DNA of 64,000 nt from Candidatus Goldiibacteriota bacterium (GCA_938034975.1 CALHNI010000001.1:105807-169806); one strand, 5' to 3'; positions 3,519 through 55,010 are shown, numbered from the stretch's first letter. Translations and numbers: made by a program. The notes: generated from the letters alone by a model not told the origin.

Positions 3519-5795
3519 TTATCCGAGGTCCTTTAATTTTGCAATTCTTTCGTTTAATTCTTCTAATCTTTTTTTTGCACTTAAATGTTCCGGATCAATT
3601 TTTAATATTGTCTCAAATTTTTCCTTTGCTTCTTTTAATTTATTCTGTTCATAAAGGTCAATTCCGATTTTATACATCTGCTGGAGTTCCTGTTCAACAA
3701 GCGGTTTTATATCTCTTAAATATTTAAGTGCAAATTCATTGGTTGGATCAATTTTTAATATTTCATTAATTTTTTCCAAAGTATCAATTATCCTGTTATT
3801 CCTGTAATATGCGTCTACTTTTTCCATAAGATCTTCCAGACGTTTTTTTAAAATTTCTTTTGCCTTTTCCAGGTAATCTTTTAATTTCTTTTCCAATGGC
3901 CTTTTCTCAATAGCTTTTTTCCATTCTTTTATTGCTGTTATAAAATCTTCTTCTAAAAATTTCACAAGTCCTTTTTGAAACGCTTCTGCTGTTATTGCTG
4001 ATTCTACATCTGTTCCACCGAAAGTTTCTGCCATCAGATTATTATAAACTTCGTCGTATTTTTGTTTTATTTTTTCCTCATTTGGATTTAAATTTAACGC
4101 ACGTTTTAAATACGAAATTGCTTCCAGAGCATTTCCCGCATTAAATGCCTCTACTCCTTTGTTAAATAATTCTTCCTGTTCTTTTTTCCCGGCTATCTCT
4201 TTTAATTTTTGTTTTGCACTCTCAATATACGTTATTGCATATGAGTTATTTGGTTCTATTTTTAAAATTTCCTGCCATTTTTTTATAGCTTCTTCTATTT
4301 TTCCTGTTTTATAAATCTCCACCCCTTCATTTAGCAAATTGGTTATATTACCAACAACCTGAATTTTTTCTTCAGCGCTTTTAATATATGCCTTAAGTTG
4401 GGCATTATCCGGATCCAAATTTAACCCTTCCTGCCATTTAACAATTGCTCCTTTTATATTACCCTTTTTATAAATATTTAACCCCTCTAACATTATTGCC
4501 TTTATCTGTTCCTGAAACTGTTCACTATTTAATTTTTGCTGAATCATCTCAAAAGCTTTTGCTATTTCCTGATTATCAGGATATTTACTTCTTAATTTAC
4601 TGTAAAATTCATAAGCTTCCTTGTAATTTCCTGCTGATAATAAAGATCTTCCCTGTTTTAACTGGTTTTCAAATTCTTTTTTTGTTTGTTCTTTGAGCAT
4701 ACTATCCAGTATTGATTGCGCCGATGCTTTGCTTGATGATATACCTTTTAAAGCAAGGTCAATTTCCTGTTGAGATGTTGCATTTTTCTTTGCTTCTTCC
4801 AAAGTTATAAGCCCCTTTTTATAAAGTGATATTAATGACTGGTCAAAAGTTTGCATCCCAAATTGTCCACCATCCCTTATTAAATCCTTTATTGAATTTA
4901 ATTTTAATTCTTCTATATATCCACTCACAGTTGGCGTTACAACCATGATTTCAACAGCAGGAACACGACCCGCTCCATCTGCTTTTGCAACAAGCCGTAA
5001 CGATATAACAGCACGTAATGCATCTGCAAGTTGTATCGCAATCTGACGTTGTTGTTCTTTAGGAAAAAAATCAAGTATCCTGTTGATCGTCTGTATGGTG
5101 TCTATCGTATGCAAAGTAGAAAAAACCATATGTCCTGTTTCAGCTGCACTTATCGCTGTTGCCACGGTTTCTTTATCTCTCATTTCTCCGATTAAAATTA
5201 CATCAGGATCCTGTCGCAAAACATATTTTAAAGCAGTTGAAAAATTTTCAGTATCAAGTCCTACTTCCCTTTGCGATATGCTTGCTTTTTTATCCGAATG
5301 AACAAATTCAATTGGGTCCTCTATTGTAACTATATGACAATTATAATTTTCATTTATTTTATCAATCATTGCAGCAAGAGTTGTTGATTTTCCTGTACCT
5401 GTTGCTCCTGTTACCAAAACCAAACCACGCGGATAAAGAGCAATTTCATTTAATATCACAGGTAAATTTAATTCTTCTAATGTTGGTATCTTAATCGGTA
5501 TTGCTCTTAAGACAACTTCCAACTTTCCCATCTGCCTGAATGCATTCGCCCTGAATCTTGCAACACCTTCCAAATTATACGCAGCATCAATTTCATTTGA
5601 TTCTTCAAATTTTTTTCTTTGTTTTTCATCCAATATGAAATATATTGCTTCTTTTAAATCACTATTTGATAATATGCTCATATCAAGCGGTAAAAGTTTC
5701 CCATCAATTCTTAAAAGCGGTGGTCTTCCTTCTTTTAAATGCAAATCCGATGCTCTTTTTTCTATCATTAAATGCAAAAGGTCTTTAATGTTCAT
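3519..5795 (-). CDS. pilT: PilT-family type IV pilus retraction ATPase fused to a roughly 400-aa C-terminal TPR-like repeat region
   Basis: 758 aa. Residues 1 to about 345 look like PilT (ASDLHL, Walker A GATGTGKSTT, Walker B-type ILIGEMRD, then HMVFSTLHT). The remainder is 6-7 repeats of the type IYK.G.I..AI.KWQE.L.I.P.N. Confidence 0.85.
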   Translation of the reverse strand: MNIKDLLHLMIEKRASDLHLKEGRPPLLRIDGKLLPLDMSILSNSDLKEAIYFILDEKQRKKFEESNEIDAAYNLEGVARFRANAFRQMGKLEVVLRAIPIKIPTLEELNLPVILNEIALYPRGLVLVTGATGTGKSTTLAAMIDKINENYNCHIVTIEDPIEFVHSDKKASISQREVGLDTENFSTALKYVLRQDPDVILIGEMRDKETVATAISAAETGHMVFSTLHTIDTIQTINRILDFFPKEQQRQIAIQLADALRAVISLRLVAKADGAGRVPAVEIMVVTPTVSGYIEELKLNSIKDLIRDGGQFGMQTFDQSLISLYKKGLITLEEAKKNATSQQEIDLALKGISSSKASAQSILDSMLKEQTKKEFENQLKQGRSLLSAGNYKEAYEFYSKLRSKYPDNQEIAKAFEMIQQKLNSEQFQEQIKAIMLEGLNIYKKGNIKGAIVKWQEGLNLDPDNAQLKAYIKSAEEKIQVVGNITNLLNEGVEIYKTGKIEEAIKKWQEILKIEPNNSYAITYIESAKQKLKEIAGKKEQEELFNKGVEAFNAGNALEAISYLKRALNLNPNEEKIKQKYDEVYNNLMAETFGGTDVESAITAEAFQKGLVKFLEEDFITAIKEWKKAIEKRPLEKKLKDYLEKAKEILKKRLEDLMEKVDAYYRNNRIIDTLEKINEILKIDPTNEFALKYLRDIKPLVEQELQQMYKIGIDLYEQNKLKEAKEKFETILKIDPEHLSAKKRLEELNERIAKLKDLG

Positions 5796-5819
5796 TATGA
5801 AAATCCCTCTAATTTAATT

Positions 5820-6821
5820 TTAAAAAGACATCGTTACCCCAAAACGATGGATTGAATTGGTCAGAAGTATTTTTAGATATTGCTGATATGTATAATCAAT
5901 AGAAAAACCTTCCATATAGATACTTCCGCCTCCTGAGATGATATATGCGTCATTTTTCTGATCAATTGAAATACCTCCGCGTAATGCAACTTTTTTAATC
6001 TGCTCCATTTGATTCAAATCAACTGCATATTCCAACCCGGCATTATAAAATTCTATCTCAGGGGAGCCTTTGTCATTTTCCAACAATTTTACTTCGCCTA
6101 TTATTAAAAAGTTATTTGTTATTCCATAATAAAAACCGCCTTTTAATATGAATGGAAGTTCTTCTTTTAAACCTGCCTGCCAGTTTAATTGATTTAAAAT
6201 ATTCTGTGCCATTATTCCCAGATTTAAATTTTCTTTTACGGCAAACATCAAAGCAGCATCCAGTCCATAACCTGAAGCTCCAATTTTTTGCCCAGAAAGA
6301 GTTAAACTGCTGTTTATTGCCATATACTTTGCATTTAATCCAATTGATAATTTCGGATATTTATATTTGTTTAATCCTAAAAATTTATCAATCTGGTATG
6401 CCCATGAAACGACTATTACATATTCATTCCAGTTATTATCAGAATCTCCTGTGAAATCTCCAGCAATATTTACAGTTGTGTAATTTAAAGCAGCTCCGAT
6501 TGCACCATATCCGGACAAATCACCCTGCGCATAACTGAGTAAATATTTTGAAATCTTGCCAGCAGAAGCAATGTCAAAAAGAGATGGTATATAAGTAAAA
6601 CTTAAACTTTTGGCTTTCGGATCAAAAAGCGACATGGCAGCAGGATTATAAATTGCCGCATTTGCATCATTTGCAAGCGCTGTAAATGCACCCCCCAAAC
6701 CAGCTGCTTTTGTCGCATCATAACCCTCTGAAAAACTGCCACCTAAAAAATTAGATTCCGCATAAATTGAAGTAAAAATTATTATTATTGCAAAATAAAT
6801 TTTTAAAAATTTTTTAATCAT
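5820..6821 (-). CDS. Outer-membrane beta-barrel protein, PorV/PorQ-like
   Basis: 333 aa with a signal peptide and an N-terminal AAGLGGAFTALANDANAAIYNPAAM motif typical of PorV/PorQ/UPF0164-type barrels. It has alternating beta-strand character and ends in F. Confidence 0.55.
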   Translation of the reverse strand: MIKKFLKIYFAIIIIFTSIYAESNFLGGSFSEGYDATKAAGLGGAFTALANDANAAIYNPAAMSLFDPKAKSLSFTYIPSLFDIASAGKISKYLLSYAQGDLSGYGAIGAALNYTTVNIAGDFTGDSDNNWNEYVIVVSWAYQIDKFLGLNKYKYPKLSIGLNAKYMAINSSLTLSGQKIGASGYGLDAALMFAVKENLNLGIMAQNILNQLNWQAGLKEELPFILKGGFYYGITNNFLIIGEVKLLENDKGSPEIEFYNAGLEYAVDLNQMEQIKKVALRGGISIDQKNDAYIISGGGSIYMEGFSIDYTYQQYLKILLTNSIHRFGVTMSF

Positions 6822-6835
6822 TTGTTATTTCTCCG

Positions 6836-9800
6836 TTATCTGTTTATTACTATCATTCTCGTTTTCATTATTTCTGAATCTGTTTTCTTTATTGATATTT
6901 TCATTATATAAAGTCCATTTTTTAAATTAGCACCTTTATCATTTTTGCCATCAAATAAAAAATATGCTAAATTAACAGGAGTTATACCACCAAGCCAGGT
7001 GTAATTGTAAAAATAAGAAGCATCTTTTGGATAATTTATTGTTCTTACAAGTGTGCCATATAAATTATAAATATTTATTTTTATTTCTTTTGCCTCAGTG
7101 AGGTTTTCAAGATATATACCATCTTTATCATAAAAATAAATTACTGCATTTCCCTTTTCAGGATTAAATACTTTATCACTTCTTAAATCATCAGTATACT
7201 TTTTAATCGCAACAATTGTTGGCGGAACAGAATACAAAAGTGCAAAAATTGTGCCTTGCGCAAGGTTCGTTATTGTTGCTTCTATGTAATGGTCCGAACC
7301 ACTCATTACAGGATTACTTATATTTGTTATCCTGTTCCATGTGACACCGTCATAATACCATAAAGTTAAATCATTTTCAGTGAGTTTTAAATTATTAAGT
7401 ATTGCAATATCAGTATTTGTATAATGCATTCTTAATGTTGCTGAACATAAAGTCGGATTAAAAGTCAATGGCATATTCTGGGCTGTAAAACTTACTGCTG
7501 TTGCTATTAAAGCATAAGTCCCAGGTGGAGATGGTGGAGAAGAGACAGCAGTTACTGTTATACTTTTAGGTGAAATTGTATTGCCCATTGAATTTACAAT
7601 CCCTGATGTTGTTTCAGTAAAAACAGAAATTATCATATAGGTAGTTGAATTTTCTCCTGTTCCGGAAAGATTTATATAAGTAATCCCTGCTGTTGTAATA
7701 TAAAATGTATATGAATAAACACCTGAATACCCGTTTTGTGAAACAACACTGACAAAAACAGTATAATTACCATCTGATAATACTGTATTTGGAGTAAAAA
7801 CCAATAAATTTGTTCCTGTTGTATGCACAACACTGCCATTTACATAATTACCTGTTGTATTATTTCTAACTGTTATGGTAGAAAGTGTCCAATCAACATC
7901 AGATGAACCACCGGGTATTACTGTGGCATTAATTTTTGACACAAGAAAATTTATCTGTGTGGATGTTGATGGTGAAAGTTCATTTGTCGTTCCTGATGGC
8001 GACTGAACCGATAAATTTGTAACAACAGGAATTGATGTGTCTTTTATATCAAAAGTAAATGTTTTTGATTGTCCTATATTATAATTTGCATCAACAGGCA
8101 CAACTGTATAAGAATAACGACCACCAATTGTCAGATTATTATCCGGTATATAATAAATTTCCCAGGATTTAGTTCCCGGATTACCTGCATTCCATGCAAC
8201 CCTTCCAGGTACAGGATTGCCATAAGGATCTTTCAATGTAAATGTAGAAAGGTTGGTAGGACCTGCGCCAACCCCTTCATCAGTTATCATTACTTTTAAA
8301 TAATTTGATGGTCCAAGAACATTGGGTTCAACAATTGAACCATCTGATGGATATTCAGAATAAGGAACTATTTGTGGTGGTGTTGTATCAGGTAAAGGAA
8401 CTCCAGGATCCTGTTCTACAATAAAAGAACACGTTCTCTGCGAAGAACTTAAACCATAACCTCGTTCATCACTTATAATATTATAACTTTCATCTTCAAA
8501 ATAACTTGGCATTACGTGCAATTTATAATAACTCAATGTTTTTGTTGTTCCGCCACAATCTACTGTTTCCTGCCAGATATAAGATGCTGTGTCCTCACAA
8601 TATATTGGTAAAATATATTTACCAACAAGAATACCCCTTACAGCACCAATATATACTCCTGGTGATATTGATTTAGAATAAAAAATGAAATCTGCACTCA
8701 TTTTAAAAACACCATCATCATAAGTCCCATCTGTAAAAGAATTAAAAAATGCCATATCCCAGTCATTATCTTTATCATCATCACCTTTTGTATAAACAGT
8801 TAATGTATCGCCAGAGCATAAATCCACAGGTAGATCAGGACCTGCATAAACATTACCACTCATTGCCAGCAAATCAGCAAATTGTGGAAATGTTATATCT
8901 TTATAAGATAAATCCATATCATAATTAGATGAAGAATCTTTTTTGAAAGTTTCAACCAGACCACCGGAGCTATTATAGATTTTCACATCATGATAAAGCC
9001 ATGGATAATTCCTATAATCATGACTTATGCCAGGAGTTTCTCCAAGTGTATAATTAAATCCAAGATTTGCAAGATTCTGACGGGTTGCATTTTTCAACTC
9101 CGAATTAACCTTTAATCTTACTATAGTCATTGGCACCCCAACATTTGTGTATTTTGCGTCAATTGAATAAATATCTGTCCATATTTGAACAGTAGTTAAC
9201 TTTAAAGGGCCAGTATAACTTCTTCCTGTATTTCCTGCAGAATCAGTAATTTCAAAAGCATACGTAAAATCTCCATCTGTTTGCATTGTTCCTGAATTAC
9301 TCAGTCCATCCCATAAAATCGGCTGATTAAACCCATAATAACCAGTAGCAGAAAGAGTTTTTATAGTAACACTATTATAAAAAATATTAAGCTTAACTGA
9401 ACAATTTTCAGTAAGGTAATAATAAAACTGTAAAAGTTCTGTCTCTGGGTTGTATGGATTTGGACTTGCATTAACCAGTTCAATTGAAGGTCTTATTCCA
9501 TCTATTGATAATTTTGACGGGCTGATAAAACCATCATTACTGGCTTTTATATTACTAACCGCAAAATGTCCTACAACAGATGCGTTTTTTAAATTAAACT
9601 TATATGATTCCCTTACAAGAAATTTTGTATTATAAACTCCATCACCAGCAACTGTATCATTATGTAATGTCATATCTCCATCATCAAATAAAAGTATTCC
9701 ATAGATAGAAGTTCCTATATCTATTGAAGCATCACCGCCTGTAATCATACTTCCTTCTGCAACCGAAAAAGAAGAATATTGTAATGTTAAATAATCAGCA

Positions 9801-10186
9801 CAATTTTTGCCTGCTTTTAGGGTTGCATTATTTATCATCAAAGTATTCTGGGACGCATTTAAAGGATTGGGTGTATAGGTTGTTATTTCCCATGTTCTTT
9901 CACCATCATAAACATACATAAATCCAGGAAAAGAACCCGGGAAACTCGGACTATAAAGATAAATAGCAGATGCTGTAATGGTTGCCACTGTAACATCAGT
10001 ATATGATTTTGTAATGTCAACTGCTGCTAATCTGAAATAAATATAATCACCTATTTTAGCGGTCTGAGCAGTAGGAGTAATTGTATGGTCAAGCGAAGTT
10101 ATTACATATACTGAAAATACATTTGATTTTAAAATAAAAAGAATAAAAAAAGCACTTAACAAAAGTTTCTTTACATATTCCTTCAA
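6836..10186 (-). CDS. Large secreted surface protein with Ig-like and FlgD-Ig domains and a T9SS-type C-terminal sorting-like domain
   Basis: 1116 aa with a TTG start (10186-10184) preceded by AGGAGG, and a signal peptide. There is an internal FlgD-Ig-like segment (SPNPYNPETE...WDGLSNSG) and DT(T/S)(P/I)P Ig-domain boundaries. The C-terminus (INIYNLYGTLVRTI...FDGKNDKGANLKNGLYIMKI...) resembles Por_Secre_tail/FlgD-Ig. Confidence 0.7.
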   Translation of the reverse strand: MKEYVKKLLLSAFFILFILKSNVFSVYVITSLDHTITPTAQTAKIGDYIYFRLAAVDITKSYTDVTVATITASAIYLYSPSFPGSFPGFMYVYDGERTWEITTYTPNPLNASQNTLMINNATLKAGKNCADYLTLQYSSFSVAEGSMITGGDASIDIGTSIYGILLFDDGDMTLHNDTVAGDGVYNTKFLVRESYKFNLKNASVVGHFAVSNIKASNDGFISPSKLSIDGIRPSIELVNASPNPYNPETELLQFYYYLTENCSVKLNIFYNSVTIKTLSATGYYGFNQPILWDGLSNSGTMQTDGDFTYAFEITDSAGNTGRSYTGPLKLTTVQIWTDIYSIDAKYTNVGVPMTIVRLKVNSELKNATRQNLANLGFNYTLGETPGISHDYRNYPWLYHDVKIYNSSGGLVETFKKDSSSNYDMDLSYKDITFPQFADLLAMSGNVYAGPDLPVDLCSGDTLTVYTKGDDDKDNDWDMAFFNSFTDGTYDDGVFKMSADFIFYSKSISPGVYIGAVRGILVGKYILPIYCEDTASYIWQETVDCGGTTKTLSYYKLHVMPSYFEDESYNIISDERGYGLSSSQRTCSFIVEQDPGVPLPDTTPPQIVPYSEYPSDGSIVEPNVLGPSNYLKVMITDEGVGAGPTNLSTFTLKDPYGNPVPGRVAWNAGNPGTKSWEIYYIPDNNLTIGGRYSYTVVPVDANYNIGQSKTFTFDIKDTSIPVVTNLSVQSPSGTTNELSPSTSTQINFLVSKINATVIPGGSSDVDWTLSTITVRNNTTGNYVNGSVVHTTGTNLLVFTPNTVLSDGNYTVFVSVVSQNGYSGVYSYTFYITTAGITYINLSGTGENSTTYMIISVFTETTSGIVNSMGNTISPKSITVTAVSSPPSPPGTYALIATAVSFTAQNMPLTFNPTLCSATLRMHYTNTDIAILNNLKLTENDLTLWYYDGVTWNRITNISNPVMSGSDHYIEATITNLAQGTIFALLYSVPPTIVAIKKYTDDLRSDKVFNPEKGNAVIYFYDKDGIYLENLTEAKEIKINIYNLYGTLVRTINYPKDASYFYNYTWLGGITPVNLAYFLFDGKNDKGANLKNGLYIMKISIKKTDSEIMKTRMIVINR

Positions 10187-10210
10187 AAATTCCCTCCTGA
10201 ATCTTTTTCT

Positions 10211-10469
10211 GGTAGTGTGAAAAGTTTTAACGCTTTTTACTTAAAAATCCTTTTATTCATATACTTATGTTGCCTTTGTTCCCCCTTTATCAAAGGGGGA
10301 TGATTTTAGGGGGATTTACATCCATTATCTTTTTCTCGCTTTCTTTTAATTTAAAATCTCCCCTACTCCCTCTTTATAAAAGAGGGATAAATGTATATTA
10401 TTTTCTATACTTTTAGTATATATTTTAATCTCTGCCTTCTTTATTTTTCATAGAACTTTTCACATTACC
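10211..10469 (-). mobile_element. Family-A MITE, copy A4 (short form, 259 bp)
   Basis: On the minus strand it starts ggtaatgtgaaaagtt and ends aacttttcacactacc. It is flanked by an 8-bp direct repeat ctttttct at 10203-10210 and 10470-10477. It is near-identical in layout to copy A3. Confidence 0.85.
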
Positions 10470-10490
10470 CTTTTTCTCTTTATTTTTTAA

Positions 10491-10518: not shown

Positions 10519-10775
10519 GCAGAGATAAAATTGCCAAAATATTCAGTAACTTGTATAAAAATTGATTTAATAAAGTTTCTTTGGAATTTTTCTCTCGCAT
10601 CCTCAAATCTTCATAGTTATATTTTTTCTTTTATTACCGCAACCTTATAGTGCACTTGTATAAAATTTCGCAGGCATAAAGTCTGCACCTACATCGTTTT
10701 ATTTTTATTTCTCCTATTAGCAAAGGGGGACTAAAGGGATTCCCTGCACCTTCGCCTGTCAATTTTTTATTTAAA

Positions 10776-10936
10776 CTTGAAAATCGTTAGGAAATTACGA
10801 TTTTCAGGAGAAAAAAATAAAATATATTAAAAAACTTATAAAACAACACTTATGTTTTATTATTTATTTTAAAAGCTGACGAATAAAAGTAATGCGTCAT
10901 AAAAATAAAAACGCATTTTCTAATGCGTTTTTACGG
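10776..10936 (-). repeat. Family-B repeat, copy B2 (161 bp, inverted orientation)
   Basis: The reverse complement reads ccgtaaaaacgcattagaaaatgcgttttt...gtgttgtttt...ctcctgaaaatcgtaatttcctaacgattttcaag. Confidence 0.75.
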
Positions 10937-11138
10937 TATGATATTGGCATTTTATATATTTTTAATTTATGCTGAAGTAATTTTTTTTCATTGAGATTTA
11001 AAAATTAAATTATAAATTTACTAACGAGAAATTCTTTAATGCTATCTAAAATCCACACCCTATTACCAATAGTATTATTAATCAAATATTTTTACACCTC
11101 AAAAACAAAATTTTCACATTTTTATTATTAAAAATATC

Positions 11139-12488: not shown

Positions 12489-12514
12489 AATCTTAAAATA
12501 TTTTATTATATTAT

Positions 12515-12677
12515 GAATGCCAATAAATAAATTTTTATTTTTTTAACACATTACTTTATTCACACGTTTTTTTATTTAAAATAAAGAACAAGTGTTGTTT
12601 TAAATATTTTATTGTTTTTAAAATATATTTTTTTTGTTTTTTCCTGAAAATCTCAATATTTTAATGCGATTATCAAG
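12515..12677 (+). repeat. Family-B repeat, copy B3 (left hairpin deleted, right hairpin degenerate)
   Basis: It shares a 45-bp identical core with B6 (aaaataaagaacaagtgttgttttaaatattttattg) and the aatgccaata left flank with B2. It ends cctgaaaatctc...gcgattatcaag. Confidence 0.6.
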
Positions 12678-21678: not shown

Positions 21679-21706
21679 ATTATACCAATTACCCTCGTAT
21701 TGTCAA
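21679..21706 (-). promoter_or_regulatory. Near-consensus sigma70 promoter (TTGACA-N16-TATAAT) for the 8-gene minus-strand operon
   Basis: Minus strand reads TTGACAatacgagggtaattggTATAATattac, about 35 nt upstream of the GGAGG-ATG at 21642. Confidence 0.6.
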
Positions 21707-21721
21707 TACAGGTAGAATTAA

Positions 21722-21932
21722 CCGTAAAAACGCGTTAGAAATTGCGTTTTTATGGAAAAACAAACTGTTTTTATCATTTTTATTTAATAAATTTTCATTT
21801 TTATAATGCATTACTTTTATTCACCTGTTTTTTAATTTTAAAAACAAATACACTCTTAAAATTCTTATTTGTTTATAAACCTTTTTATATATTTTCTCTT
21901 TTCCACTGAAAAACGCTAATGCGTTTTTCAGG
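21722..21932 (+). repeat. Family-B repeat, copy B4 (211 bp) flanked by a 9-bp direct repeat
   Basis: The sequence reads ccgtaaaaacgcgttagaaattgcgtttttatgg...ccactgaaaaacgctaatgcgtttttcagg. It is flanked by tagaattaa at 21713-21721 and 21933-21941, or 13 nt if the preceding cagg is counted. Confidence 0.8.
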
Positions 21933-21945
21933 TAGAATTAAATCC

Positions 21946-31547: not shown

Positions 31548-31754
31548 CCGTAAAAACGCGTTAGAAAAAGCATTTTTACGAGAATATAAAATATGTCTTT
31601 TTGGTTTAATAATTTCTTATTTTTATAGCACATTACTTTAATTCACCTGTTTTTTAATTTTAAAAACATGTTCACTCTTAAAATTCTTATTTGTTTATAA
31701 ACCTTTTTTTATATTTTCTCCTTTCCGCTGAAAAACGCTAATGCGTTTTTCGGG
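31548..31754 (+). repeat. Family-B repeat, copy B5 (207 bp)
   Basis: The sequence reads ccgtaaaaacgcgttagaaaaagcatttttacg...ccgctgaaaaacgctaatgcgtttttcggg. The centre is near-identical to B4. Confidence 0.8.
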
Positions 31755-31769
31755 ACTATTAATCTTTTA

Positions 31770-50932: not shown

Positions 50933-50956
50933 ATGATAAGTAGTTTTTAATTTTTA

Positions 50957-51383
50957 GATAATGTGAAAAGTTCTATGAAAAAGAAAGAAGTCAGAGATTA
51001 AAATATATACTAAAAGTATAGAAAATAATATACATTTCCCCCTCTTTTAAAAAGAGGAGGCAGGCGAGATTTAAAAATAATGAATCAAATTTCCCAGAAA
51101 TCTCCTTTTTACAAAGTGGTAGAAAAAAAGAAAGAGGAGGAAAATCGCTCTTAGTCTCCCTTTTGCAAAGGGGGAGAAAAAAAATAAGAATAAGAATAAA
51201 AAATTCCTCTCTTTAATAAAGAGGGGTTAGTGGAGATTTTAAATTAAAAGAGAGCGAGAAAAAGAGAATGGATGTATGTAAATCCGCCTAAATCCTTCTT
51301 TGATAAAGGTGGAACAAAAGGCAACCAAAGTATATGAATAAAAGGATTTTTAAGTGAAAAGCGTTAAAACTTTTCACAATACC
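50957..51383 (+). mobile_element. Family-A MITE, copy A1 (long form, 427 bp)
   Basis: It starts gataatgtgaaaagtt and ends aacttttcacaatacc. It is flanked by the 8-bp direct repeat aattttta at 50949-50956 and 51384-51391. Confidence 0.85.
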
Positions 51384-51407
51384 AATTTTTATGGCAGGAG
51401 GAAAAAT

Positions 51408-52685: not shown

Positions 52686-52735
52686 AAATTATTGAATAAA
52701 AGCAAATCACACAAAAATGTGTAGAGATAATGTGA

Positions 52736-53126
52736 AAAGTTCTATGAAAAAGAAAGAAAACAGAGATTAAAATATATACAAAAAGTATTGAAAATAATAT
52801 ACATTTCCCCCTCTTTTAAAAAGAGGAGGCAGGGGAGATTTAAAAATAATGAATCAAATCCCCCAGAAATCTCCTTTTTACAAAGTGGTAGAAAAAAAAA
52901 GAGGAGGAAAATCGCTCTTAGTCTCCCTTTTGCAAAGTGGGAGAAAAAAATAAAAATAAGAATAAAAAATTCCTCTCTTTAATAAAGAGGGGTTTAAATT
53001 AAAAGAGAGCGAGAAAAAGATAATTGATGTATGTAAATCCGCCTAAATTCCCTTTTGATAAAGGGGGAACAAAGGCAAAATAAAAAGGATTTTTAAGTGA
53101 AAAGCGTTAAAACTTTTCACAATACA
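52736..53126 (+). mobile_element. Family-A MITE, copy A2 (long form, 391 bp)
   Basis: It has the same termini as A1. It is flanked by the direct repeat tgtgtaga at 52728-52735 and 53127-53134 (9 nt, atgtgtaga, if the junction base is counted). Confidence 0.88.
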
Positions 53127-53150
53127 TGTGTAGATTAAAGGAGGTTATCT

Positions 53151-53663
53151 ATGAAAGTTGCTATTGTTGTTGGCAGTGATTCTGATTTACCGGTTATTAA
53201 TGAAAGTATAAAAATGTTTGAAAAGTTCGGTATAAAAGTTTCAGTAAATATTGCTTCGGCGCATAGAACACCTGATAAAATAAAGAAAGTTTTAAAAGAA
53301 ACTGAAGATTGTGAAGTGATAATTGCAGCAGCAGGTATGGCAGCTCATCTTCCTGGCGTGATTGCTGCACAAACAATTAAACCTGTTATAGGTATTCCAA
53401 TGCAGGGTGGTGCATTAAATGGTATAGATGCACTTTTTTCCATAGCGCAGATGCCATCTGGTGTTCCGGTTGCTACGGTTGCAATAGGTAAGGCAGGCGC
53501 TATAAATGCAGCATTACTTGCTGTTGAAATACTCTCTTTAAAATATAATAAATTAAAAGACAAAATAAAAAAATACAGGAAAGAAATGGCAGATAGTATA
53601 AATACAAAAGATATAAAATTGCAAAAAATTGGTATAGAAAAATTTATTGCAGAATTAAAATAA
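53151..53663 (+). CDS. purE: 5-(carboxyamino)imidazole ribonucleotide mutase
   Basis: 170 aa with VGSDSD, SAHRTP and AGMAAHLPGV motifs. Confidence 0.95.
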   Translation: MKVAIVVGSDSDLPVINESIKMFEKFGIKVSVNIASAHRTPDKIKKVLKETEDCEVIIAAAGMAAHLPGVIAAQTIKPVIGIPMQGGALNGIDALFSIAQMPSGVPVATVAIGKAGAINAALLAVEILSLKYNKLKDKIKKYRKEMADSINTKDIKLQKIGIEKFIAELK

Positions 53664-54288: not shown

Positions 54289-54463
54289 TCGTAAAAATAC
54301 GTAAGAAAACGCGTTTTTACTGGAAAACAAAATTTTTTATTATTTTTATAATGCATTATTTTTATTTGCCTGTTTTTTAATTTAAAATAAAGAACAAGTG
54401 TTGTTTTAAATATTTTATTGTTTTTTTTCTTCTGAAAATCGCGAACTTTTAAAGATTTTTAGG
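54289..54463 (+). repeat. Family-B repeat, copy B6 (175 bp)
   Basis: The sequence reads tcgtaaaaatacgtaagaaaacgcgtttttactgg...aaaataaagaacaagtgttgttttaaatattttattg...cttctgaaaatcgcgaacttttaaagatttttagg. Confidence 0.75.
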
Positions 54464-54476
54464 ACATAAAAATCAA

Positions 54477-54505
54477 TTGACAACAATAATATTATTTATT
54501 ATACT
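54477..54505 (+). promoter_or_regulatory. Strong sigma70-type promoter (TTGACA-N17-TATACT) for the tRNA-Phe/tRNA-Thr (and possibly rpsP) unit
   Basis: aaTTGACAacaataatattatttatTATACTtttt lies about 30 nt upstream of the tRNA-Phe 5' end. Confidence 0.6.
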
Positions 54506-54625: not shown

Positions 54626-54701
54626 GCCGGCGTAGCTCAGTGGTTAGAGCAACGGTTTCGTAAACCGTAGGTCGTGCGTTCAAATCGCATCGCCGGCTCC
54701 A
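54626..54701 (+). tRNA. tRNA-Thr (anticodon CGT), encoded CCA
   Basis: Hand-folded. The acceptor is gccggcg/cgccggc and the D-arm tagctcagtggttagagc. The anticodon stem is acggt/accgt with loop ttCGTaa, the T-loop is ttcaaat, and the 3' end is tCCA. Confidence 0.92.
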
Positions 54702-54727
54702 GTTGTGAGGAATTTAACTAATTTTTA

Positions 54728-54986
54728 GATAATGTGAAAAGTTCTATGAAAAAGAAAGAAGGCAGAGATTAAAATATATACTCTAAAAGTATTGAAAATA
54801 ATATACATTATCCCCTCTTTAATAAAGAGGGGTTAGGGGAGATTTTAAATTAAAAGAGAGTTAGAAAAAGAGAATGGATGTGAATCCCCCTAAAATCCCC
54901 CTTTGATAAAAGGGGAACAAAGGCAAAAGAAGTATATGAATAAAAGGATTTTTAAGTGAAAAGGATAAAAAACTTTTCACAATACT
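54728..54986 (+). mobile_element. Family-A MITE, copy A3 (short form, 259 bp)
   Basis: It starts gataatgtgaaaagtt and ends aacttttcacaatact. It is flanked by aattttta (54720-54727) and aatttttt (54987-54994), a 7/8 match. Confidence 0.82.
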
Positions 54987-55010
54987 AATTTTTTAAGGAG
55001 GAGTTTTTTT

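Follow-up and report, generated by a model that had tools for sequence, protein, structure and literature searches.

The closest described systems to the repeat family reported here are the TnGBS ICEs with the ISLre2 elements (p-MULT 3) and the ISKra4 group (p-MULT 4), whose Mutator-like DDE transposases target sigma-A promoters (PMC3942029). These elements insert in one orientation, with the right inverted repeat (IR) 16 bp (15-17 bp) upstream of the -35 hexamer; they are flanked by 8-9-bp duplications and have IRs of 18-39 bp that end in C, the orientation being ascribed to IR asymmetry (PMC3942029). The usual distance of ISLre2 and ISKra4 elements from genes is 50-250 bp (PMC9208149). The repeat analyzed here, termed family A, comes from a 64,000-nt stretch of DNA (the window; GCA_938034975.1, CALHNI010000001.1:105807-169806) and resembles these elements in being oriented, in lying at a fixed distance upstream of an expression signal that is left intact, with its right IR toward the gene, and in having 8-9-bp direct repeats, a terminal C and dissimilar IRs, although its IRs, of ~16-20 bp, only just reach the range of 18-39 bp. 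It differs from TnGBS/ISLre2 in that the signal is the Shine-Dalgarno (SD)/start-codon region rather than a -35 box, in that it lies 13 bp from the hexamer and 25 nt from the start codon, i.e. within what is inferred to be a co-transcribed leader, and in being a non-coding MITE without a linked transposase. TnGBS/ISLre2 are, moreover, elements of Firmicutes, whereas the family-A host belongs to an uncultured, very AT-rich lineage with Ca. Goldbacteria as its nearest named relatives (the closest matches for both PurD and BamA, at ~65-67%). Because no promoter fits the 25-nt gap, the defining ISLre2 feature, the -35 spacing, is lacking; family A behaves like a promoter-targeting p-MULT element but cannot be filed as one.

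Integration at a set distance from a gene is also known from Ty3, which inserts at Pol III start sites, from Dictyostelium TRE, which inserts ~48 bp upstream of tRNA genes, and from Tn7, which inserts at attTn7. As is proposed for family A, these represent 'safe-haven' integration in a fixed orientation with the gene spared; their enzymology, however, is different, involving dedicated targeting proteins or host factors, and none of them uses a translation-initiation site as its reference. Correia/NEMIS in Neisseria, ERIC/IRU in enterobacteria and Yersinia, and RUP/BOX/SPRITE in the pneumococcus are short non-coding repeats, rich in hairpins, with terminal inverted repeats (TIRs); they are intergenic or intercistronic, are often transcribed with their neighbours and have orientation-dependent effects. 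Unlike family A, MITEs of the Correia/ERIC/RUP type target generic short sites (e.g. TA) and lie at broadly distributed distances from start codons, and our literature searches found no such family described with a single-nucleotide SD/start register. Mycobacterial MIRUs are intercistronic, operon-oriented and in a fixed relation to the neighbouring stop and start codons, but they are 40-100-bp tandem units without TIRs or target-site duplications (TSDs), act through overlapping small ORFs and do not represent insertions of a transposon at a set distance from an SD. The pneumococcal RUP, BOX and SPRITE families are apparently covered by PMC3049150. The original prediction that no SD-referenced MITE has been described agrees with full-text literature searches, which returned no MITE or IS with an SD- or start-codon-referenced register, TnGBS/ISLre2 being a close conceptual precedent (PMC3942029). 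On the basis of these searches, the nearest known concept is promoter-referenced targeting.

BLAST within the window finds exactly four family-A copies, located upstream of purD, purE, rpsP and the gene for a 1116-aa surface protein (Table 1). The gene identities rest on GARS domains (Pfam) for purD, an AIRC domain for purE, a Ribosomal_S16 domain for rpsP and Ig-like domains (Pfam FlgD_ig/Big_13) for the 1116-aa protein. On alignment of the four copies the borders are sharp, with conservation running from G[A/G]TAATGTGAAAAGTTCTATG to ...AACTTTTCACA[A/C]TAC; all four have the right terminus ...CTTTTCACA[A/C]TAC, the last 30 nt being AGTGAAAAGCGTTAAAACTTTTCACA[A/C]TAC, and beyond the borders the flanks share nothing except AGGAG. 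The elements end G...C and, in all five copies now known (including the one described below), have imperfect TIRs, the left end, G[A/G]TAATGTGAAAAGTT, agreeing with the reverse complement of the right end at 14-16 of 20 positions. The two ends are asymmetric in that the right one has an additional subterminal hairpin, GTGAAAAG-N8/9-CTTTTCAC. Each copy has its own, locus-specific TSD pair of 8-9 bp, identical over 9/9 positions at purE and in the fifth copy and over 8/9 at purD, rpsP and the surface-protein gene. There is no coding capacity, with stops in all six frames, and the G+C content of the elements is ~30%, that of the window being 28%. Family A is therefore a MITE, i.e. a non-autonomous DDE-type transposon derivative, of 258-426 nt, in agreement with the original prediction of MITE insertions with TSDs: TIRs, TSDs, small size without coding sequence, dispersed copies and empty orthologous sites in relatives are all observed.

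Table 1. Positions of the family-A copies, their duplications, the gaps to the downstream start codons and comparison sites. Positions refer to the window unless stated otherwise.
Feature	Position	Strand	Context and evidence
Family-A MITE, long form, 426 nt	50957-51382	+	Between GH57 gene (stop 50932) and purD; alignment, BLAST, TIR 15/20
Family-A MITE, long form, 400 nt	52726-53125	+	Between purD (stop 52685) and purE; alignment
Family-A MITE, short form, 258 nt	54728-54985	+	Between tRNA (54626-54698) and rpsP; alignment
Family-A MITE, short form, 258 nt	10212-10469	-	Upstream of 1116-aa Ig-domain protein gene (6836-10186, minus)
Family-A copy in contig L006	2300-2557 (contig)	sense to downstream gene	Between bamA and next gene
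Left TSD, purD site, TAATTTTTA	50948-50956	+	8/9, last 8 = 8/8, against 51383-51391
Left TSD, purE site, ATGTGTAGA	52717-52725	+	9/9 against 53126-53134
Left TSD, rpsP site, TAATTTTTA	54719-54727	+	8/9 against 54986-54994; TAATTTTT 8/8
Left TSD, surface-protein site, GAGAAAAAG	10470-10478	-	8/9, last 8 = 8/8, against 10203-10211
purD gap, 25 nt	51383-51407	+	Right TSD CAATTTTTA, tggc, AGGAGG (51396-51401), aaaaat, then ATG 51408
purE gap, 25 nt	53126-53150	+	Right TSD ATGTGTAGA, ttaa, AGGAGG (53139-53144), ttatct, then ATG 53151
rpsP gap, 25 nt	54986-55010	+	Right TSD TAATTTTTT, aagg, AGGAGT (54999-55004), tttttt, then ATG 55011
Surface-protein gap, 25 nt	10187-10211	-	Right TSD CAGAAAAAG, attc, AGGAGG (10198-10193), gaattt, then TTG 10186-10184
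Unoccupied SD-type AGGAG[G/T], examples	1978 (-), 11220 (+), 13047 (-), 23308 (+), 31820 (+), 37659 (+), 47630 (+), 59513 (+)		

The two long copies share an internal segment of ~167 nt (about 51071-51237 and 52840-52992) that is absent from the short copies in the alignment. The near-repeats G[C/T]G[A/G]AGATTT at the two borders of this segment, together with a second CCTCTTTAATAAAGAGG hairpin module within it, suggest an origin by internal duplication or by nested insertion. CTCCT, a candidate for anti-SD pairing, is present only in the long copies, and the purE copy has deletions of 11 and 12 nt. The divergence among copies (10-13%) indicates that they are not very recent.

In five of five copies, the element is in sense orientation and 25 nt separate its last conserved base (the C of TAC) from the start codon. 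The identical gap and orientation had been claimed for the four window copies; direct reading, the alignment and a script recount from copy borders and start codons all confirm the claim, and the fifth copy agrees. The common layout comprises 9 nt (the TSD), 4 nt, AGGAG[G/T], 6 nt and the start codon, with AGGAG at -12..-8 in all four window copies and a T directly before the start codon in all five. The finer division of the gap into 1 nt followed by an 8-bp TSD holds at purD, purE and the surface-protein gene (8/8 in each case) but fails at rpsP, where it gives only 7/8 and TAATTTTT directly abuts TAC; the TSD is better stated as 8-9 bp adjoining the right end. The rpsP site also differs in that its strongest SD is TAAGGAGG (54994-55001, with a 9-nt spacer), which is shifted 3 nt upstream relative to the others and overlaps the in-register AGGAGT. 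The strict invariant is thus the distance from right end to start codon, with AGGAG in register.

The fifth copy came to light when 185,579 representative genomes were scanned for the right-end pattern AAGGATTTTTAAGT-N12-20-TTTTCACA; of the five loci obtained, only one is a real family-A copy. It lies in contig CALINM010000190.1 (L006) of an uncultured-bacterium MAG and is complete, at 87-89% identity by BLAST. Its TSD is a perfect 9 bp, TTAATTTAA, overlapping the stop codon of bamA, the product of which is an Omp85 protein with five POTRA domains; on the right side the 9-bp TSD is followed by taaa, AGGAGG, ttttat and ATG, i.e. by the same 25-nt gap in sense orientation. Since the search pattern held no flank sequence, this copy tests the register rule without bias. 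The genes that flank it are absent from the window. We considered whether its BamA corresponds to a 758-aa ORF of the window, and rejected this because the proteins are unrelated; L006 is hence a separate locus.

Comparison with relatives indicates that the insertions are derived. In contigs L010-L017, with PurD proteins 78-85% identical to that of the window, the gene order is GT4-GH57-purD-purE-tsaC with spacers of 12-24 nt, the exception being L011, which has an unrelated insert upstream of purD. In L022, with a BamA 90% identical, the arrangement bamA-TAA-attaaaaAGGAGGttttttt-ATG-ompH is essentially the reconstructed empty site of L006. The orthologous purD, purE and bamA/ompH sites are empty and contiguous, and family-A sequence was not found in ~130 kb from the relatives (L010-L017, L022). 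In all of them AGGAGG is already present 5-7 nt before the start codon at purD, purE and ompH; the strong SD consequently pre-dates the insertion. The possibility that the element delivered the SD was rejected, since the TSD intervenes, the intervening bases are locus-specific and the relatives already have AGGAGG. The L011 insert (GCA_900174595.1, PurD 84% identical) is 245 nt long (254-498, between GH57 and purD) and starts with tandem TTGCTGA/TGGCAGG-like heptamers; it is without family-A similarity and without an obvious TSD. In L012 (PurD 79% identity), an rve-type (IS3-like) transposase gene and a Y1_Tnp (IS200/IS605-like) gene are present at 2126-2908 and 5053-6006, on the upstream side of the GH57-purD operon at a distance of a few kb; neither is linked to family-A ends.

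To assess chance, a null model was used in which the elements were removed, leaving 4142 intergenic positions of the window, i.e. 8284 position-and-orientation states; 22 of these give the observed geometry, so that p = 0.0027 per copy under random intergenic placement. The probability of the three further window copies matching the first is ~2e-8, and ~5e-11 when the L006 copy is added; orientation alone is weak evidence (five of five, 1/16 given the first). The original prediction that the shared offset and orientation do not reflect chance is supported by this comparison, which was run within the window and places the arrangement far beyond random expectation, as well as by the fifth copy being in register. 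Nor can constraints of space fix the position, because the register is identical in reconstructed spacers of 21 nt (L006), 39, 46 and 55 nt and in the ~750-nt intergenic region at the surface-protein gene.

Occupancy within the window is exclusive with respect to SD geometry. There are 43 AGGAG[G/T] hexamers, but N6 and a start codon follow only five. An element is present at four of the five, the remaining one (10073, +) being antisense inside the surface-protein coding sequence. All four intergenic AGGAG[G/T]-N6-start sites are occupied and, at least in the window, such sites look saturated. Of ~8-11 SD-type AGGAG[G/T] sequences in the window with spacers of 4, 7 or 8 nt, none carries an element (examples in Table 1). 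Taking eight feasible unoccupied sites, the Fisher probability for the association of occupancy with the 6-nt spacing is ~0.002. Because the other spacings are unoccupied, the register is tied to the combined geometry of SD and start codon rather than to AGGAG alone. The sample remains five copies, four from the window and one from L006, with no genome-wide distance distribution behind the register. No further family-A copy was found in ~10.5 kb beyond the window (Logan contigs L018, L020 and L021), and no decayed or misplaced copies or fragments were found in ~75 kb of this genome.

We consider it probable, although not established, that the register reflects oriented, fixed-distance target selection at integration, with the DNA of the ribosome-binding site (RBS) being read. 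On this proposal, family A would be moved by an unidentified helper transposase that chooses strong translation-initiation regions at the DNA level, and the right end would be joined 13 bp upstream of the AGGAG(G) hexamer, itself 6 nt before ATG or TTG; joining at a fixed distance from the hexamer would explain why the element always ends 25 nt before the start codon, facing the gene. Orientation would be set by the asymmetry of the ends, i.e. by the extra subterminal hairpin at the right end. The inserted element would become part of the 5' UTR or intercistronic RNA, and the downstream genes, including the essential rpsP operon, would stay expressed because the sense strand, although it has stable hairpins, is essentially without intrinsic terminators. 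The more specific proposal, that a transposase, with or without a host factor, recognizes AGGAG, the 6-nt spacer and the start codon and integrates 16 bp upstream of the start in a fixed orientation, we regard as evenly poised. Three points are inferences only: that integration, and not subsequent selection, sets the register, that the hexamer and start region are read by a domain of the transposase, and that the element is co-transcribed.

The original prediction had offered either SD/start-referenced targeting or the survival of one geometry as the cause; the evidence leans to the former, but five copies cannot formally separate the two. Supporting targeting are the filling of every intergenic AGGAG-N6-start site of the window, the emptiness of sites with other spacings and the constancy of the register across spacers, and, by analogy, the precedent for oriented insertion in Mutator-like prokaryotic transposases. 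Against it, in addition to the small sample and the failure to find a transposase or an autonomous partner, the reading of an asymmetric motif 13-28 bp from the joint would be unusual for simple IS transposases, and the 3-nt shift of the best SD at rpsP implies that a loose AGGAG suffices or that the start-codon region is what is measured. The 10-13% divergence also means that selection has had time to remove copies elsewhere.

The main alternative, which we consider unlikely but which is not excluded, is that insertion is AT-preferring and not RBS-specific, and that only this geometry persists, as the 3' part of the element acts as a leader at a fixed distance from SD and start codon. Such a leader might stabilize the mRNA as a 5' hairpin, provide a ribosome standby or enhance translation, or serve as a processing site. 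The divergence noted above leaves time for purifying selection, the genes concerned (rpsP, purD/E and the one after bamA) are either essential or strongly expressed, and family-A RNA is highly structured (z = -2.7, sense strand), with a hairpin ending 30 nt before the start codon, just outside a 30S footprint. Terminator-like hairpins are almost confined to the antisense strand (the single sense candidate is in the purE copy), and would make the opposite orientation polar, which could explain the fixed orientation. Functional selection, however, rarely enforces single-nucleotide spacing, yet the gap is exactly 25 nt in five of five copies, and selection leaves unexplained both the sole use, and the full occupancy in the window, of genes with a pre-existing AGGAG-N6-start. 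The absence of decayed or misplaced copies or fragments in the ~75 kb searched also counts against it. There is almost no covariation, with one compensatory pair in 58, but only three sequences were available and the result is uninformative. Nor is there a match to an Rfam family: over the window only tRNAs reach the gathering score, and on the elements at E <= 1 the only match is a chance one to mir-320 (20.7 bits), with no leader or riboswitch family.

With respect to expression, the junctions before purD and purE, before the rpsP-trmD-rplS operon and before the gene that follows bamA, originally of a few tens of nt, measure ~300-470 nt with the elements inserted. Because these downstream genes must stay expressed, it is inferred that the sense strand must allow read-through or supply transcription. 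No convincing -35/-10 pair for an outward promoter was found at the 3' end of the element; a weak sigma-70-like match (9/12) is present near its 5' end. A near-consensus sigma-70 promoter, TTGACA-17-TATACT, is present at 54477-54505 of the window, upstream of a pair of tRNA genes that are followed by the rpsP copy, from which it follows that the host uses canonical promoters; rpsP may be read through from this tRNA promoter across the element. At 51354-51407 of the window, a GTG of the terminal hairpin of the element is in frame with purD without an intervening stop. Mechanical ORF calling consequently adds 18 codons to purD (443 versus 425 aa), and family-A repeats can mislead start-codon annotation in this way.

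Much less well supported is the possibility that an ISLre2/TnGBS- or ISKra4-like transposase targets a -35-like hexamer and that, in an AT-rich genome, the RBS mimics this promoter signal. Family A has in common with the elements of such enzymes the 8-9-bp duplication, the terminal G...C, the asymmetric IRs, the oriented insertion with the right end facing the gene and a similar distance from junction to hexamer (+14..+19 here, compared with +17..+22 for -35 boxes); but a promoter cannot be accommodated in the 25 nt before the start codon, none of the hexamers found at +17..+22 (AGGAAA, AGGTTA, AGTTTT, AGGGAA and AGGTTT) is -35-like, and ISLre2/ISKra4 elements are typically 50-250 bp from the nearest gene (PMC9208149), so that we regard this explanation as highly improbable. 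That no transposon is involved, and that a regulatory leader or 'mobile promoter' was duplicated together with its RBS by recombination, or that the register is a sampling accident, is barely credible, since, although reused or mobile promoters are known before unrelated genes (PMC3575422) and weak sigma-70-like matches occur near the 5' end of the element, locus-specific 8-9-bp duplications flank the inverted-repeat ends, the 16 nt between duplication and start codon are unrelated among loci except for AGGAG, the orthologous sites in relatives are empty and contiguous, and the chance probability is ~1e-8 or lower. The findings given above contradict promoter mimicry as well as spread by recombination or chance.

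Neither a transposase nor an autonomous partner with family-A ends was found in the window, the right-end scans giving only the L006 copy and chance matches. The right-end pattern had a single, chance match in metagenome contigs and no match in viral contigs. BLAST of the element gave no match in plasmids and, in phages, only a 38-nt chance match to a Mannheimia phage, and a six-frame pseudo-protein query with a long copy found no relative among 5.8 billion proteins. The family-A ends gave no informative match to the IR sequences in the supplement of PMC3942029. The left end was also compared with the GGnnnTG consensus, being GGTAATG in the surface-protein copy and GATAATG in the others; for the right end to be compatible, the variable base has to be included. 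This consensus is that of IS1-family ends, which in the ISfinder description are associated with an 8-9-bp duplication. The family-A TSD is also 8-9 bp, and no IS1 transposase was seen with family A.

Short-read assemblies break at family-A repeats, i.e. exactly at gene starts. Logan contigs L001, L002, L009 and L021 of the same organism (ERR9287890, ERR9287621) begin ~30 nt inside the right end of an element, L021, with the rpsP-variant copy, beginning 26 nt inside it, and end 30 nt inside the left end of the next element. The occurrence of single-gene contigs starting 51-55 nt before an ATG is thus explained by breakage inside family-A ends, and this contig-end signature could be used for counting copies in Logan-type assemblies. 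Logan contigs also break at a second intergenic repeat family, of ~200 nt, observed in the window at 2640-2800, 10760-10960 (-), 12505-12650, 21700-21935, 31560-31760 and 54290-54430 and at the ends of L018 and L020. It has a CGTAAAAACGCGTTAGAAAANGCGTTTTTACGG hairpin and a second, terminator-like one, CCTGAAAA..(N)..TTTTCAGG, as well as a TTTTTATAATGCATTACTTTTATTCACCTGTTTTTTAATTT block that is conserved, and occupies promoter- or terminator-type intergenic regions, not RBSs.

The choice of target site largely decides whether a transposon harms its host or is tolerated by it. The known bacterial 'safe havens' include attTn7, tRNA genes, REP sequences, terminators and, in the case of TnGBS/ISLre2, the region immediately upstream of promoters; if targeting at integration is correct, the translation-initiation region would join this list, and 'RBS-homing' would constitute a previously undescribed target specificity. 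It would imply a natural protein module that reads Shine-Dalgarno/start geometry in DNA, and would provide a natural system in which one structured leader precedes many unrelated genes, of use in studies on the effects of 5' UTRs on translation and mRNA decay. For the organism, such targeting would make it understandable that junctions within operons, even one of only 21 nt, can be saturated by a repeat while essential genes such as rpsP are left unharmed, and family A would represent a mobile, structured 5' leader seeded before the best-translated genes of its genome.
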